Below, in pieces: positions 6,523-17,194 of a stretch of DNA of 64,000 nt (position 1 is its first letter; the number at the start of each line of letters is the position of its first letter). Under the pieces are notes generated by a model. The model searched no databases, was not told where the DNA came from, and was given only the letters and a program-made list of their open reading frames with translations. The stretch is from a bacterium. Lineage in GTDB: Bacteria > Patescibacteriota > Minisyncoccia > Phycocordibacterales > UBA9973. The position numbers and the translations under genes are program-made. The stretch is from positions 37,641 through 101,640 of the forward strand of contig JBAXSP010000001.1 in the NCBI GenBank assembly GCA_037130655.1, given 5' to 3'.

Positions 6523-6597
6523 GGCCCCATCGTCTAATGGTTAGGACAACGGGTTTTCAATCCGTTAACCGGAGTTCGACTCTCCGTGGGGTCACCA
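6523..6597 (+). tRNA. tRNA-Glu (anticodon TTC), CCA encoded
   Basis: Hand-folded cloverleaf: acceptor GGCCCCA/TGGGGTC, anticodon stem ACGGG/TCCGT, anticodon loop TTTTCAA, T-loop TTCGACT, 3' CCA. Confidence 0.9.
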
Positions 6598-6633
6598 CGA
6601 CAAAAAATCCCAACTGCTTGGGATTTTTTGCTA

Positions 6634-6760
6634 CGTGGTGAAGGCGCAGTGTTGCGTTTTGGAGCACTACGACAAAATGCCACGAGCCGGGGTCGCGAAC
6701 ACTTATGTCCACGCAGTTTACAGAGTAAACGAGTAGACTTAGTGATTCGTGACACAACAG
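6634..6760 (+). ncRNA. tRNA-3'-linked conserved structured element, copy A (putative ncRNA or tRNA 3'-trailer RNA; function unknown)
   Basis: Homologous to 16671-16840 and 46590-46757 (minus). Shares the blocks UACGA(C/U), GAGCCGGGGUCGCGA and ACUUAGU.AUUCGUGAC. The CGAACAC/GUGAUUCG helix shows compensatory changes relative to the other copies. Confidence 0.45.
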
Positions 6761-6804
6761 ATAAAAAAGAGTAGAATTACTTTTATAAAATTATTTTTAG
6801 AAAA

Positions 6805-7452
6805 ATGAGTCCAACAGAAGTATTTAAATCAATAGGATCTTTAAAAATATCTCACCCTTTTCGAGATATTATTGTTCTTATATATGGCATCGGCGCAATT
6901 TTAATATTTCAATATTTATCTATTTTTCAAACATCTGATTATATTCCTAAAAATTTAAATAGAATAGAGTTTGATTTATTTTTTTTAGTTATCGGGTTTA
7001 TTTTAGGTAAACTACTACTAATAATAAGTGATTTAATTTTTTCTATTGAATCAAAAATATTAAGACTACTTTCATCAAACCCCAAAATAGATAAAAAAAC
7101 CTTAAGTAGTCTAAAAATAAACATATTTCGTATTTTAAATAATTTTTTGATTGACAAAAAATATGAAAATATTAGACAAACAGATGTTGAGCACGAAATT
7201 ACAATAGCTGATAAAGCCGAATTAATTCAAAAATATCCTGATTTACACCATGAGTCAGAAAGAATTATTTATTTATTATTTTTTATAAGAATTGCAGTAG
7301 CTGTAACTTTGTTTATCTCCTTTTTTTATTCCTGGAAATTTATTTACTTATTTTTAATCTTTCTGTTGATTTGGCATAAAAACAAAAATGAGCTTATTTA
7401 TAATGATCATTTAATGTATAGATCTATTGTAAAGTCTAAAATAGTAAAATAA
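6805..7452 (+). CDS. hypothetical integral membrane protein (very AT-rich gene)
   Basis: 215-aa ORF with multiple hydrophobic segments. Local composition is markedly more AT-rich than the flanking genes. Confidence 0.45.
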   Translation: MSPTEVFKSIGSLKISHPFRDIIVLIYGIGAILIFQYLSIFQTSDYIPKNLNRIEFDLFFLVIGFILGKLLLIISDLIFSIESKILRLLSSNPKIDKKTLSSLKINIFRILNNFLIDKKYENIRQTDVEHEITIADKAELIQKYPDLHHESERIIYLLFFIRIAVAVTLFISFFYSWKFIYLFLIFLLIWHKNKNELIYNDHLMYRSIVKSKIVK

Positions 7453-16564: not shown

Positions 16565-16640
16565 GCTTGGATAGCTCAGTTGGTAGAGCGCTCCCCTGAA
16601 GAGGGATAGGTCCCCAGTTCGAGCCTGGGTCCAAGCACCA
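16565..16640 (+). tRNA. tRNA-Phe (anticodon GAA), CCA encoded
   Basis: Acceptor GCTTGGA/TCCAAGC, D-arm GCTC-AGTTGGTA-GAGC, anticodon loop CTGAAGA, T-arm CCCAG-TTCGAGC-CTGGG, 3' ACCA. Confidence 0.9.
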
Positions 16641-16670
16641 TATAAAAACCACGGAATTCCCGTGGTTTTT

Positions 16671-16840
16671 ATATGGTGCTTGGAAAGTAAATGAACTGCT
16701 TCATTTACGACAGACTCGAAAGACGGAGACATGGTTTTCGTTAGAAAACAGTCGAGTCGGGGTCGAGAGTACTTAGCAGAATTCGAACAAAGTGAAGAAT
16801 TCTAGTTAGTAACTCGTGACCGAGCCTGGGTTCCAAGCAC
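16671..16840 (+). ncRNA. tRNA-3'-linked conserved structured element, copy B
   Basis: Blocks UUACGAC, GAGUCGGGGUCGAGAGUACUUAG and UUAGUAACUCGUGAC. Terminal helix GUGCUUGGAA/UUCCAAGCAC. Ends with an 18/19-nt copy of the tRNA-Phe 3' end. Confidence 0.45.
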
Positions 16841-16847
16841 AAATAAT

Positions 16848-16871
16848 AAAACCTCCGATATCGGAGGTTTT
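16848..16871. terminator. bidirectional terminator (AAAACCTCCGATATCGGAGGTTTT)
   Basis: Perfect hairpin with an A-run and a T-run, between element B and the convergent gene 16877..17194. Confidence 0.7.
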
Positions 16872-16876
16872 ATTAT

Positions 16877-17194
16877 TTATTTATACAAATCGATCAGTGA
16901 TTTCAAATGATTGACATCAGGAATACCCCCAGTACCCACACCTGTTCCACCGGTATACAAATTGAGTAAACTACCCAAATATGGCTGTAAGAAGTAGAAA
17001 GAGCCGAATCCGAGACCGATAATTACAATCCAGTAAAAAATTCTAGTAATTTGTGCGATTTGTTGTCCTCGTCGTACTTTACGAACAATGACCGTATTTT
17101 CTTTTATCAATCCGATTAATTCGTCAATTTTTTGAGACAAATCATTATTTGAATTATTTTGACCATTTAGTTGATTTTGTAAATTTGGTTCCAT
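16877..17194 (-). CDS. hypothetical small membrane protein (Q/N-rich N-terminus, Gly-rich C-terminus)
   Basis: 105-aa ORF with one TM segment. Confidence 0.45.
   Translation of the reverse strand: MEPNLQNQLNGQNNSNNDLSQKIDELIGLIKENTVIVRKVRRGQQIAQITRIFYWIVIIGLGFGSFYFLQPYLGSLLNLYTGGTGVGTGGIPDVNHLKSLIDLYK

Follow-up and report, generated by a model that had tools for sequence, protein, structure and literature searches.

Structured RNA Elements Framed by Copies of the Local tRNA behind Patescibacteria tRNA Genes: Possible ORF-less Insertion Elements

Three tRNA genes in the window, by which we mean the whole 64-kb stretch of DNA analyzed here, are followed by widespread non-coding elements of about 100-170 nt whose conserved center, the type I core, is an undescribed structured RNA family under selection. 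We read these elements, with a probability of about 40%, as ORF-less, RNA-structured insertion elements that target the T-loop or the acceptor end of a tRNA gene and restore the gene. Gain/loss polymorphism, relics, tandem copies and the sharing of cores by different tRNAs all favor an insertion element over a sponge or regulatory RNA. All sequence data are from MAGs.

ARAGORN found five tRNAs in the window. Co-oriented segments lie behind tRNA-Glu, tRNA-Phe and tRNA-Asn (ARAGORN, Rfam tRNA), just where the original prediction had placed them. The box GAGYCGGGGTCGMGARYACTTA occurs exactly three times in the 64-kb window (0.00 expected from shuffles), as does the box ACTTAGTRAYTCGTGAC (0.08 expected). 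A covariance model for the type I element (R1), built from 70 relatives, matched only the three copies A, B and C (78-107 bits). The same scan of the window gave no match behind tRNA-Val or tRNA-Arg, the two genes said to lack a segment. The copies share a mean column identity of 65%, and the GC content of the elements is 0.46-0.54, compared with 0.37 for the entire window. Their general layout runs from the tRNA, with its 3' part X1, through a terminator-like hairpin, X', the core and X2, often to a second terminator:

6523..6597, plus strand: tRNA-Glu(UUC), host of copy A (ARAGORN; Rfam tRNA 61.5 bits)
6592-6599, plus strand: copy A X1, the last tRNA-Glu nt and 2 nt of trailer, TCACCACG; partner of X'
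6601..6630, plus strand: copy A terminator-like hairpin with CUGC tetraloop, CAAAAAATCCCAA[CTGC]TTGGGATTTTTTG; belongs to the element
6634..6641, plus strand: copy A X' CGTGGTGA, reverse complement of tRNA-Glu nt 71-76 plus CG; class 2 (acceptor-end) frame
6642..6753, plus strand: copy A type I core, ending in GTGAC (R1 match 6630-6765, 78.0 bits; consensus structure, pair counts)
6642-6649, plus strand: copy A box1 AGGCGCAG
6650-6682, plus strand: copy A P2 hairpin
6683-6692, plus strand: copy A CGAGCCGGGG
6693-6702 paired with 6742-6753, plus strand: copy A P3
6703-6741, plus strand: copy A internal loop and P4
6753..6757, plus strand: copy A X2 (CACAA), short direct repeat of the tRNA-Glu 3' end (CACCA)
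16565..16640, plus strand: tRNA-Phe(GAA), host of copy B (ARAGORN; Rfam tRNA)
16620-16640, plus strand: copy B X1, tRNA-Phe nt 56-76, CGAGCCTGGGTCCAAGCACCA
16641..16673, plus strand: copy B terminator hairpin T1 (sequence; full-transcript fold)
16674..16684, plus strand: copy B X'a TGGTGCTTGGA, reverse complement of tRNA-Phe nt 66-76, 0 mismatches
16687..16708, plus strand: copy B inner hairpin with CUGC tetraloop, between X'a and X't
16709..16720, plus strand: copy B X't GACAGACTCGAA, reverse complement of T-loop and T-stem 3' strand (nt 54-65), 2 mismatches
16721..16820, plus strand: copy B type I core, ending in GTGAC (R1 match 16709-16832, 107.5 bits)
16721-16728, plus strand: copy B box1 AGACGGAG
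16729-16752, plus strand: copy B P2
16753-16772, plus strand: copy B CGAGTCGGGG and P3 5' strand
16773-16808, plus strand: copy B P4
16809-16820, plus strand: copy B P3 3' strand, GTGAC at its end
16821..16840, plus strand: copy B X2 CGAGCCTGGGTTCCAAGCAC, direct repeat of tRNA-Phe nt 56-74 with a 1-nt insertion
16841..16878, plus strand: copy B second terminator hairpin T2 AAATAATAAAACCTCCGATATCGGAGGTTTTATTATTT
46798..46870, minus strand: tRNA-Asn(GUU), host of copy C (ARAGORN; Rfam tRNA)
46816 down to 46799, minus strand: copy C X1, tRNA-Asn nt 56-73
46760..46797, minus strand: copy C terminator hairpin T1 (sequence; fold)
46752..46759, minus strand: copy C X'a GCTCCCCG, reverse complement of the tRNA-Asn acceptor 3' strand
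46729..46751, minus strand: copy C inner hairpin AGTGAGTGAT-AGTA-ATCACTCAC
46715..46728, minus strand: copy C X't GTGTAGGGATCGAA
46602..46714, minus strand: copy C type I core, from box1 variant AAGCGCAG through GTGAC (R1 match 46590-46726, 84.3 bits)
46593..46601, minus strand: copy C X2 CGATCCCTA, direct repeat of tRNA-Asn nt 56-64; remainder decayed

In copy A, the first C of X2 is common to X2 and GTGAC, and the 28-nt hairpin recurs at loci L040 (tRNA-Val) and L090 (tRNA-Tyr). T1 of copy B is the center of a perfect palindrome (25 + 25 nt) that takes in the tRNA 3' end, and T1 of copy C occupies the same place in a palindrome of ~26 bp. Terminator-type Rfam near-matches cover T2 of copy B on both strands. 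In copy C, X'a is without a partner in X2, and its X't is, over the final 12 nt, perfectly complementary to tRNA-Asn nt 54-65 (0 mismatches).

An exact-pattern scan added at least 119 loci, every one from a Patescibacteria MAG and most from Paceibacteria, as expected by the original prediction, which had anticipated many more copies. Their link to tRNA genes in this phylum also held, with 99 of 125 cores lying 56-380 nt behind a co-oriented tRNA (33 anticodons) and none in the opposite orientation. The location given earlier, immediately 3' of a tRNA, was right about the downstream position and incomplete in that the element is framed by copies of the local tRNA; the inverted (X') and direct (X2) copies that flank every core had been overlooked.

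This frame is exact to the nucleotide. There are two classes. In class 1 the reverse-complemented tRNA 3' part that makes up X' starts from nt 54, within the T-loop; in class 2 it starts from nt 70, near the acceptor end. The direct repeat X2 sets in 2 nt further on, so that 54 elements have an X2 from nt 56 and about 24 have one from nt 72. The two extra nucleotides of X' agree with the tRNA in 51/54 class 1 and 22/24 class 2 elements, and class 2 X2 agrees with it at p, p+1 and p+2 in 24/24. Match scores are higher against the element's own tRNA than against another tRNA both for X2 (10.2 vs 4.0) and for X' (10.3 vs 5.5). Across the family, X'a usually stands 25-27 nt upstream of X't. We also considered whether P1, the helix between X' and X2, is kept by compensatory change. 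At 43 informative positions X' is Watson-Crick complementary to the tRNA in 37 cases and to X2 in 0; X' tracks the tRNA whereas X2 decays, which does not support this idea.

In the consensus structure, the tRNA-sense strand of the type I core forms a three-way junction. Paired cells amount to 95.7%, compared with 74.7% in shuffles and 29-40% in slid controls, and the covariation score of 0.518 (0.131 in shuffles) was matched by 0/500 shuffles. With values so far above the shuffles, the core is a selected structure and not a set of drifting duplicates, as had been proposed from the three copies. The helix first recognized, CGAACAC/GUG-a-UUCG (6696-6702 with 6742-6749) vs CGAGUAC/GUA-a-CUCG, is correct and forms part of the 11-bp P3. 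Its two covarying pairs are kept in the 70 sequences (G-C 52 / A-U 18 and U-A 42 / C-G 27), and the variable hairpin between the two ACUUAG boxes is present as P4. Two details have to be revised. The short helix CGA(C/U):GUCG around GAGYCGGG does not form, since GUCG instead pairs with the 3'-end UGAC at the base of P3, and this pairing is invariant in 70/70 sequences. The UACGAY block is not conserved across the family and sits in the variable P2 hairpin. The terminator-like hairpins had escaped notice, as had the pairing of box1 (AG-N-CG) with GAG-N'-CG, in which N:N' is C:G in 28 cases, G:C in 24, A:U in 22, U:A in 4, U:G in 2 and other in 3.

Cores measure 65-130 nt within elements of about 90-200 nt, and their 3' end is GUGAC in all copies. 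Given its invariant junction nucleotides, the core would be expected to have a specific partner or biochemical activity. In 87/93 elements the tRNA-sense strand is the stabler one, and it holds 186 G-U pairs, compared with 56 on the opposite strand, by which we can eliminate an RNA on the opposite strand that converges with the tRNA and shares a bidirectional terminator.

No recognized RNA class accounts for these segments, as the original prediction had stated. Among the 4227 models of Rfam 15, only tRNA matched at gathering thresholds in the window and 18 related loci, and the three regions searched at E<=10 gave only terminator-type or hairpin chance matches, so that a known family was rejected. 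At this relaxed threshold the three regions matched neither the group I intron core (P3-P9; Intron_gpI) nor the hammerhead, twister, twister-sister, pistol, hatchet and HDV-like models. The group I terminal G and P1 U-G wobble are also missing: the end is GUGAC, and the pre-junction nucleotide is Watson-Crick paired with X' (e.g., U55 with A). X' does cover p-2, p-1 and onward from p in the manner of a group I internal guide, an analogy of layout only. Group II introns are marked by domains V/VI, 5' GUGYG, 3' AY and a size of >600 nt. The elements measure 90-170 nt by comparison and gave no Intron_gpII match, which also speaks against class IIC, the terminator-targeting type; such introns are reported to be missing from Patescibacteria (PMC13011429). 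A T-box riboswitch is contradicted by the lack of an Rfam match, the position downstream of tRNA genes and the unrelated neighbors, and a tmRNA or tRNA-like gene by ARAGORN, which found five tRNAs only and no tmRNA. An IS200/IS605 omega-RNA or IS110 bridge RNA would come with an adjacent TnpB/IscB or IS110 recombinase gene and an Rfam motif match, and neither was found. By-eye comparison with K-turns, hammerheads, retron a1/a2 and T-boxes showed that their defining sequence features are absent. A full-text literature search found no account of such elements.

The evidence for insertion comes from comparing loci. Locus L137 has an empty site where the orthologous site of L153 is filled by an 86-nt element with a CAC duplication, L135 and L142 form a second empty and filled pair, and in L123 the site that is syntenic with copy A holds a relic. 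Tandem copies occur often; among the arrays inspected, several (L039, L053, L063, L023) have a visibly degenerate downstream copy. The cores of L057 (Trp) and L063 (Arg) are 92% identical, and this identity is confined to the stretch from box1 to GTGAC. The nearest-neighbor core sits at the same anticodon in only 7/93 cases, which does not support vertical inheritance of each core at its own tRNA. Restored 3' ends with displaced fragments, the hallmark of tRNA islands, are found here as X1/X2 direct repeats from nt 56 or 72 and as filled and empty sites.

From this layout we infer the footprint of an insertion that splits the tRNA sequence at nt 55/56 or at nt 71/72. The insert would bring a replacement 3' end and terminator (X1-T) that keep the tRNA gene whole, and the original 3' fragment, displaced, would persist as X2. 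The core would be the conserved moving part, near-identical at different tRNAs, with flanks that always fit the local tRNA. X' spans the junction, with 2 nt on its upstream side and 4 to >20 nt on its downstream side. It thus appears positioned to bring the two flanks of the insertion site into register, much as a group I intron does with its two exons by means of the internal guide sequence. We propose that the active agent is the element RNA itself, produced when transcription from the tRNA promoter reads through. It could be a ribozyme, or it could serve an enzyme encoded elsewhere as scaffold and guide. Spread among tRNA genes may use the conserved T-loop or 3'-end sequence as homology. 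Among the functions listed in the original prediction, the cis-element of an unknown tRNA-targeting system comes nearest to this anatomy; a plain stable 3'-trailer RNA fits less well, since the terminator-like hairpin between tRNA and element means that such an RNA needs read-through transcription.

Several observations count against the insertion reading. Our searches found neither an enzyme nor an autonomous copy: no protein gene is a conserved neighbor (even the largest cluster is limited to 9 of about 120 loci, at no fixed position), no core is interrupted by an ORF, and Pfam detected nothing mobile in the genes beside the window copies. Nor did 2.9 million viral contigs contain a match that would suggest phage origin. 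A mature-tRNA CCA signature, which would point to reverse transcription, is also lacking; encoded CCA is not enriched (22/149 vs 11/55, p = 0.39), and we rejected retro-origin from mature tRNA. The reported lack of group II introns in this phylum (PMC13011429) counts against the reading as well. The re-matching of X' and X1 to a new tRNA is without explanation, and empty sites could be precise X1-X2 deletions instead of unoccupied targets. The frame class by tRNA species and the high occupancy in small genomes fit old, retained and possibly useful elements, and the tracking of the tRNA by X' also fits cis-acting X':tRNA pairing or palindrome correction in replication.

Some of these observations would be expected of a host cis-acting tRNA 3'-trailer module, old and vertically retained, that controls termination, processing (e.g., by RNase III, P, Z) or quality control of read-through precursors. 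We regard this explanation as doubtful, although it survives best among the alternatives. X' would lengthen the terminator hairpin and, on read-through, compete with the 5' strands of the tRNA for its 3' half, X2 and the folded core with its closing helix P1 would free it, and the cores would be homogenized or swapped by gene conversion. Consistent with such a role, decay of X2 is not accompanied by a loss of complementarity between X' and the tRNA. When the complete read-through transcripts of copies B and C are folded (MFE), the tRNA 3' half is sequestered and 0/7 acceptor pairs survive; in copy B, the tRNA 5' strand pairs with X2. A type-I-like core follows 115/206 tRNAs in the loci examined, more tRNAs have other cores, and very small genomes show high occupancy. 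Frame class tends to be constant for a given tRNA species across genomes, the junction nucleotides are highly conserved, and the mosaic similarity among cores suggests recombination. However, the orthologous tRNAs without element and the relics show that a trailer module would be dispensable, and the tandem arrays contain decayed copies. Several unrelated cores occupy the identical frame (types II and III beside type I). Since the terminator lies upstream, most transcripts would never hold the module, and the fixed 2-nt offset with a direct repeat from within the tRNA is a typical insertion footprint that a regulator does not need.

A bolder form of the insertion reading, which we think unlikely, makes the element a protein-less mobile RNA of a new class, a "homing" ribozyme or guide RNA. 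The core would insert itself, or be inserted by a host enzyme, at nt 55/56 or 71/72 with X' aligning the target, the replacement 3' end and terminator would spare the essential single-copy tRNA gene, and types I, II and III would be independent users of the frame.

The alternative that the elements are non-autonomous DNA, either MITE-like or mini integrative, and mobilized by a recombinase, transposase or HUH enzyme whose gene lies elsewhere in the genome, seems to us improbable. That enzyme would recognize hairpins or the tRNA T-arm/acceptor end, and the RNA fold would be incidental or reflect single-stranded DNA. The direct repeats do start in the T-loop or acceptor end, which are tyrosine integrase sublocations (PMC4383910), X' and X2 surround the core like terminal inverted repeats, and there is no ORF within the element. 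The conserved CUGC-loop hairpins are possible protein sites; only two CTGC-loop hairpins with a stem of >=5 bp exist in the 64 kb, both within elements. Yet 33 anticodons with matched flanks go far past the specificity of any known integrase, and tRNA islands carry their own integrase with one tRNA per integrase, while these elements have no ORF and no candidate enzyme enriched nearby. MITEs and IS derivatives have their own terminal inverted repeats and a fixed duplication, whereas X' and X2 are copied from the local tRNA and the duplication varies from 3 to 47 nt. No element runs against its tRNA (99 co-oriented vs 0 opposite), and the G-U excess and strand asymmetry argue for selection at the RNA level.

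Very improbable, finally, is a trans-acting small RNA from the tRNA 3' trailer that pairs with the tRNA 3' half or fragments as a sponge, chaperone, repair splint for T-loop/acceptor-end cleavage or tRNase decoy: X'a, the inner hairpin and X't do mimic a tRNA 5' half able to pair with nt 54-76, and the two junction positions may coincide with the cut sites of known tRNase toxins (CdiA-CT), but class 2 complementarity extends over only about 8 nt, X't is taken up by X2 in the folded element, and unwinding of a folded tRNA is energetically unlikely.

If the insertion reading is true, these elements represent a third way to inhabit a tRNA gene, beside integrase-borne islands and self-splicing introns, which needs neither a protein gene nor splicing. 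Certain bacterial genomes that rank among the smallest known have such an element at a large proportion of their tRNA genes. Type I is a new RNA family, and at least two further cores use the same frame. The flanks, re-templated for each local tRNA, and the nucleotide-exact junctions point to a base-pair-guided or copy-choice mechanism that is in principle retargetable. For tRNA biology, the read-through transcripts matter because they are predicted to sequester the tRNA 3' half. For annotation, displaced tRNA fragments and inverted copies can mislead tRNA annotation and island-finding tools in Patescibacteria.

Among known systems, tRNA islands moved by tyrosine integrases likewise insert in the 3' part of a tRNA. 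The crossover sublocations of these integrases reportedly include the T-loop and the acceptor 3' end (Williams 2002), corresponding to element classes 1 and 2. In islands a replacement 3' end keeps the gene whole and the displaced 3' fragment forms a direct repeat at the far end (PMC4383910), and both the restored 3' end and the far-end repeat are seen in our elements. Unlike islands, the elements are only about 90-200 nt long without integrase or other ORF, occur at >=33 tRNA species with flanks matched to each and an extra inverted copy X', and have a covarying conserved RNA structure as their core.

Group I introns occur in Patescibacteria tRNA genes (PMC13011429), and the elements resemble them in being ORF-less, RNA-structured and housed in tRNA genes of the same phylum. 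The complementarity of X' across the junction (2 nt upstream, >=4 nt downstream) compares with the guide that forms P1 and P10, and X1 and X2, the latter as downstream exon, can alternately pair with the same guide. The elements differ in that they lack an Intron_gpI match, end in C instead of the conserved terminal G and have no 5'-junction U-G wobble; the core has only 65-130 nt, the tRNA gene is whole without splicing, and a terminator lies inside the putative intron.

The omega-RNAs of IS200/IS605 (TnpB/IscB) and the bridge or seek RNAs of IS110/IS1111 combine a scaffold RNA with a site-matching guide. In the elements, too, a scaffold adjoins a stretch that matches its own insertion site and varies with it. 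No nuclease or recombinase gene is linked to them, however, IS605-orfB and HEARO gave no match, and X' is an inverted duplicate of upstream DNA, not a read-through flank or a short guide borne on a loop.

Bacterial MITEs and palindromic repeats (Correia, REP/BIME) often lie at gene ends, where they act as terminators or RNase III sites. They share with the elements small size, lack of ORFs, multiple copies and inverted repeats that give transcript hairpins. In contrast, the inverted repeats of the elements are derived from the target and differ at each locus, the duplication length is variable, the association and co-orientation with tRNAs are strict, and the three-way junction covaries. A last parallel is the class of 3'ETS sRNAs. 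3'ETS-leuZ is an sRNA from a tRNA 3' external transcribed spacer and, like the elements, a non-coding RNA directly behind a tRNA, possibly freed by tRNA processing. Those RNAs are unique spacers with no tRNA-derived copies and no intervening terminator, whereas the elements form a repeated family.

The window contains five tRNA genes, for which ARAGORN and Rfam are concordant. A covariance model of the type I element (a structured RNA core from box1 to GUGAC), built from 70 relatives, matches copies A, B and C and nothing else in the 64 kb. tRNA-Val and tRNA-Arg are therefore without a copy, just as the original prediction had it.

tRNA genes (ARAGORN and Rfam) and type I copies (covariance model) in the window
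6523-6597, plus strand: tRNA-Glu
6630-6765, plus strand: type I copy A, 78.0 bits
8931-9004, plus strand: tRNA-Val
16565-16640, plus strand: tRNA-Phe
16709-16832, plus strand: type I copy B, 107.5 bits
17229-17301, minus strand: tRNA-Arg
46590-46726, minus strand: type I copy C, 84.3 bits
46798-46870, minus strand: tRNA-Asn

The two long conserved boxes that had been singled out occur exactly three times each, in these copies (dinucleotide shuffles expect 0.00 and 0.08). The copies are as diverged as anticipated (column-wise identity 65%, against an estimate of about 60-70%) and locally GC-richer (0.46-0.54 vs 0.37 in the window). The suspicion that they belong to no known family also held: none of the three segments reaches the gathering score of any Rfam 15 family, and at E ≤ 10 the three regions give only tRNA and terminator-like or hairpin chance matches. 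The neighbours of the window copies encode a SET-domain protein, Hsp20, glutaredoxin and proteins without a Pfam match. The gene for the SET-domain protein (46919-47338, minus strand, 140 aa; PF00856, E = 1.4e-22), a domain uncommon among bacteria, comes directly before tRNA-Asn. A promoter-like site, GTGACA-17-TAGAAT (6749-6777, plus strand, 10/12 matches), lies 28 nt upstream of an ORF at 6805-7452; its -35 box is formed by the conserved GTGAC with which copy A ends.

From 94 anchored copies we derived the following core layout.

Layout of the type I core
box1: AG-N-C-R-N-AG (94 anchored copies)
P2: variable hairpin, two basal pairs covary
junction: CGAG-N'-CGGG(G)
P3: GUCG-M-GA-RY-AC with GU-R-a-Y-UCGUGAC, 11 bp, one bulged A, invariant G-U
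internal loop: 2x2, inside the two CUUAG boxes
P4: variable hairpin

The box1 G-N-C pairs with the junction G-N'-C (N:N' counts: C:G 28, G:C 24, A:U 22, U:A 4, U:G 2, other 3). The helix P3 with its two compensatory changes, first proposed from the window copies, recurs among the relatives (G-C 52, A-U 18; U-A 42, C-G 27). A second proposed helix, CGAY with GUCG, was rejected, since the partner of GUCG is UGAC. In an alignment of 70 sequences, standard pairs fill 95.7% of cells, compared with 74.7% in column shuffles and 29-40% in structures slid by 1-3 columns. The covariation score of 0.518 (shuffles, 0.131; slid controls, ≤0.094) was reached by none of 500 shuffles, which bears out the claim of a selected structure. 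The tRNA-sense strand is the more stable one in 87/93 elements (-40.6 vs -33.5 kcal/mol) and carries 186 G-U pairs vs 56 on the other strand. The folded strand is the tRNA-sense strand, and the RNA structure on it is under selection. Minimal elements of ~86 nt have neither P4 nor the CUUAG loops, so that the invariant part comes down to box1, the CGAGNCGGGGUCG junction and the terminal GUGAC.

Further copies had been expected beyond the window, and an exact-pattern scan (CGAGNCGGGGTCG-N30-60-TTAGTNNNTCGTGAC) across prokaryotes, each species represented by one genome, found at least 119 loci with a type I core. The listed loci all come from MAGs labelled Paceibacteria/Parcubacteria (Nomura-, Kaiser-, Yonath-, Campbell- and Wolfebacteria), Minisyncoccia, "Patescibacteria group" or "uncultured Ca. 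Saccharibacteria", apart from one with a Bacteroidota label. The latter (JBLHQB010000003.1, Patiriisocius sp.) bears five tRNA-linked type I elements and is probably DNA of Patescibacteria that was binned or labelled wrongly. Among the matches listed, a same-strand tRNA ends 56-380 nt upstream of 99/125 cores, an opposite-strand tRNA precedes 0/125, and the linked tRNAs have 33 different anticodons; most of the remaining cores lie at a locus edge. Element orientation strictly follows tRNA orientation. In 719 kb of listed loci the covariance model detects 136 copies (E ≤ 1e-3); in 380 kb of metagenomic relatives picked via an unrelated protein, whose loci contain 27 tRNAs, it detects 7. A search of 2.9 million viral contigs gave no type I match. 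Among neighbouring ORFs, no family is enriched or consistently placed (largest cluster, 9/~120 loci), and no ORF interrupts any of the cores.

Every core is flanked by sequence copied from its own tRNA, a frame that the original prediction had not noticed. A direct repeat of the tRNA (X2) follows immediately 3' of GUGAC, and the reverse complement of the same stretch (X') stands immediately 5' of box1. Since one or two hairpins separate the tRNA from X', the tRNA 3' part (X1), hairpin and X' form one long palindrome, which in copy B is perfect over 25 + 25 nt (16630-16686). Match scores are 10.2 to the own tRNA vs 4.0 to another tRNA for X2, and 10.3 vs 5.5 for X'. X2 has one of two starting points: nt 56, within the T-loop, defines class 1 (54 elements, copies B and C), and nt 72 defines class 2 (about 24 elements, copy A). 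As Williams is said to have reported in 2002, islands integrate at the same two tRNA sublocations. X' always starts 2 nt before X2, at nt 54 or nt 70. These two extra nucleotides fit the tRNA in 51/54 class 1 and 22/24 class 2 elements, being diverse dinucleotides in class 2, and the position beyond them matches in 0/78. The flanks are templated on the tRNA, one inverted and one direct, with junctions fixed to the nucleotide. X' is a Watson-Crick copy of the tRNA 3' strand and not a copy of its 5' strand, as is visible at G-U pairs in stems (locus L020). Encoded CCA is not enriched at element-bearing tRNAs (22/149 vs 11/55, p = 0.39), and there is thus no sign of X1 coming from mature tRNA.

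In class 1, an inner hairpin of ~25 nt often divides X' into an acceptor part (X'a) and a T-arm part (X't). A recurrent module of the elements, present in many loci, is a hairpin with a CUGC tetraloop (loop context AACUGCUU); in the window it is confined to copies A and B (6601-6630, 16687-16708). In class 2 it takes the place of the terminator-like hairpin, in class 1 that of the inner one. L040 and L090 carry the 28-nt hairpin of copy A unchanged. CCA is encoded in 33/204 tRNA genes of all loci; genes without it typically end in N73-CAA, so that the first trailer bases resemble a CCA end. Behind tRNA-Val(GAC) of L052, the last ~32 nt of the tRNA plus trailer (GTAGCTTTATGCAGAGGTTGGGTATCGCCCACC) form three tandem repeats directly behind the gene. 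L002 (spacer between tRNA-Gln UUG and element) and L076 (after tRNA-Val CAC) carry an extra partial direct copy of about tRNA nt 44-73, 30-40 nt behind the intact gene, resembling a further displaced fragment.

The two flanks differ in their upkeep. X2 identity to the tRNA falls from 94-100% at nt 56-61 to 80-91% at nt 62-65 and 60-76% at nt 66-73, and is at background beyond nt 73. X2 and tRNA differ at 43 positions within nt 56-65; X't is the Watson-Crick complement of the tRNA at 37 of these, and of X2 at none. In 28 elements with a decayed X2 acceptor part, X'a has on average 1.25 mismatches to the tRNA vs 2.5 to X2. X' therefore tracks the tRNA, and X2 behaves like a relic in decay, of which the proximal part survives. 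X' may owe its upkeep either to selection on pairing with the 3' half of the tRNA or to palindrome correction during replication. In minimum-free-energy folds of read-through transcripts, X' is predicted to sequester the tRNA 3' half in copies B and C (0/7 acceptor pairs kept), with the tRNA 5' strand paired to X2 in copy B; the tRNA of copy A is predicted to stay intact (6/7 kept). The behaviour of X', high occupancy and tRNA-specific frame classes fit the main rival to an insertion element, namely a cis-acting trailer module, old and retained, for which the pairing of X' with the tRNA is important.

Elements that are dispensable, relics and tandems, and multiple unrelated cores count against that module, which we consider less likely than an insertion element. 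An X't copy lies downstream of 100/206 tRNAs in the collected loci, and the frame also houses at least two core families other than type I. Type II (~69-90 nt; about 17 copies in the collected loci), a structured core unrelated to type I, comprises a long hairpin, GGGUACUGA and a small UGUAR-loop hairpin directly before X2; type III reads CAGGAAGGGGGUCGGGGAAAC...GUGGAGGAAGG...GGAGUGAGAU.

Other cores in related loci (about 10 more type II copies exist)
L109:6940-7034, plus strand: type II
L030, downstream of tRNA-Leu CAA: type II
L048:7582-7697, minus strand: type II
L110:4895-4988, plus strand: type II
L118:5371-5466, plus strand: type II
L142:1892-2005, plus strand: type II
L047, between tRNA-Gly UCC and its type I element: type III
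L068, after tRNA-Arg CCU: type III
L099, after tRNA-Thr GGU: type III

In all these cores X' ends at the complement of nt 54, and X2 starts at nt 56 where locatable (nt ~60 in the L047 type III copy); none of the other core types in the related loci matched Rfam. There are further variants, among them one at tRNA-Arg CCU (L112, L115) in which ...CUUGGC adjoins X2.

Occupancy varies between orthologous sites, relics and tandem copies occur, and different tRNAs can have cores in common. At the orthologous cluster tRNA-Ser(CGA)-tRNA-Val(GAC)-next gene, L137 has an empty site (...CGCAC|TATGAAAAAT...) and L153 a class 2 element of 86 nt with a duplicated CAC behind it; the tRNA-Val allele is identical in L135 (empty) and L142 (filled, other core type). 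L123, syntenic with copy A, retains only a relic behind tRNA-Glu (...GCTCGTGAC|CGATT). Head-to-tail tandem arrays are frequent, and in several inspected (L039, L053, L063, L023) the downstream copy is visibly degenerate. Near-identical cores at different tRNAs can have different flanks: the cores of L057 (Trp) and L063 (Arg), box1 to GTGAC, show 92% identity. L040 (Val) and L090 (Tyr), whose tRNAs both end in GGCGCAC, have core, hairpin and X' in common. Only 7/93 cores have their nearest neighbour at a tRNA with the same anticodon (3.1 expected at random), and both frame classes contain related cores.

We tentatively read type I as an insertion element with tRNA genes as its target, built on RNA structure and devoid of ORFs, with a probability of roughly 40%. 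The layout A-X1-T-X'-core-X2-B would be the expected residue of insertion between nt 55/56 or 71/72, provided that the insert brings along both a terminator and a tRNA 3' end of its own. X1 and X' might be matched to a new tRNA by template switching or gene conversion via the universally conserved sequence of the T-loop or 3' end. Together with fold-back copying at the hairpin, this conjecture would explain both tRNA-derived copies, inverted and direct, as well as the 47-nt duplication of X and the whole terminator in L017. An insertion element and a trailer module need not be mutually exclusive, self-splicing introns being an example of both readings being compatible.

A full-text literature search found no description of these elements, whose proposed mechanism is read from the anatomy of MAG sequences. 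The closest systems are tRNA-integrating islands, group I introns, guide-bearing insertion-sequence RNAs, MITEs and tRNA 3' external-transcribed-spacer sRNAs; each has one aspect in common with the elements, which lack its defining features. In tRNA-integrating islands the insert supplies a replacement tRNA 3' end (PMC4383910), much as the insert proposed here would bring its own. Group I introns are abundant in Patescibacteria tRNAs, at position 35/36 and without homing endonuclease genes (PMC13011429); unlike in group I or group II introns, every defining feature of these that was tested fails in the elements. X' nevertheless spans the junction (2 nt upstream, at least 4 nt downstream) and can pair alternately with X1 or X2, which makes it topologically like the group I internal guide sequence that forms P1 and P10.
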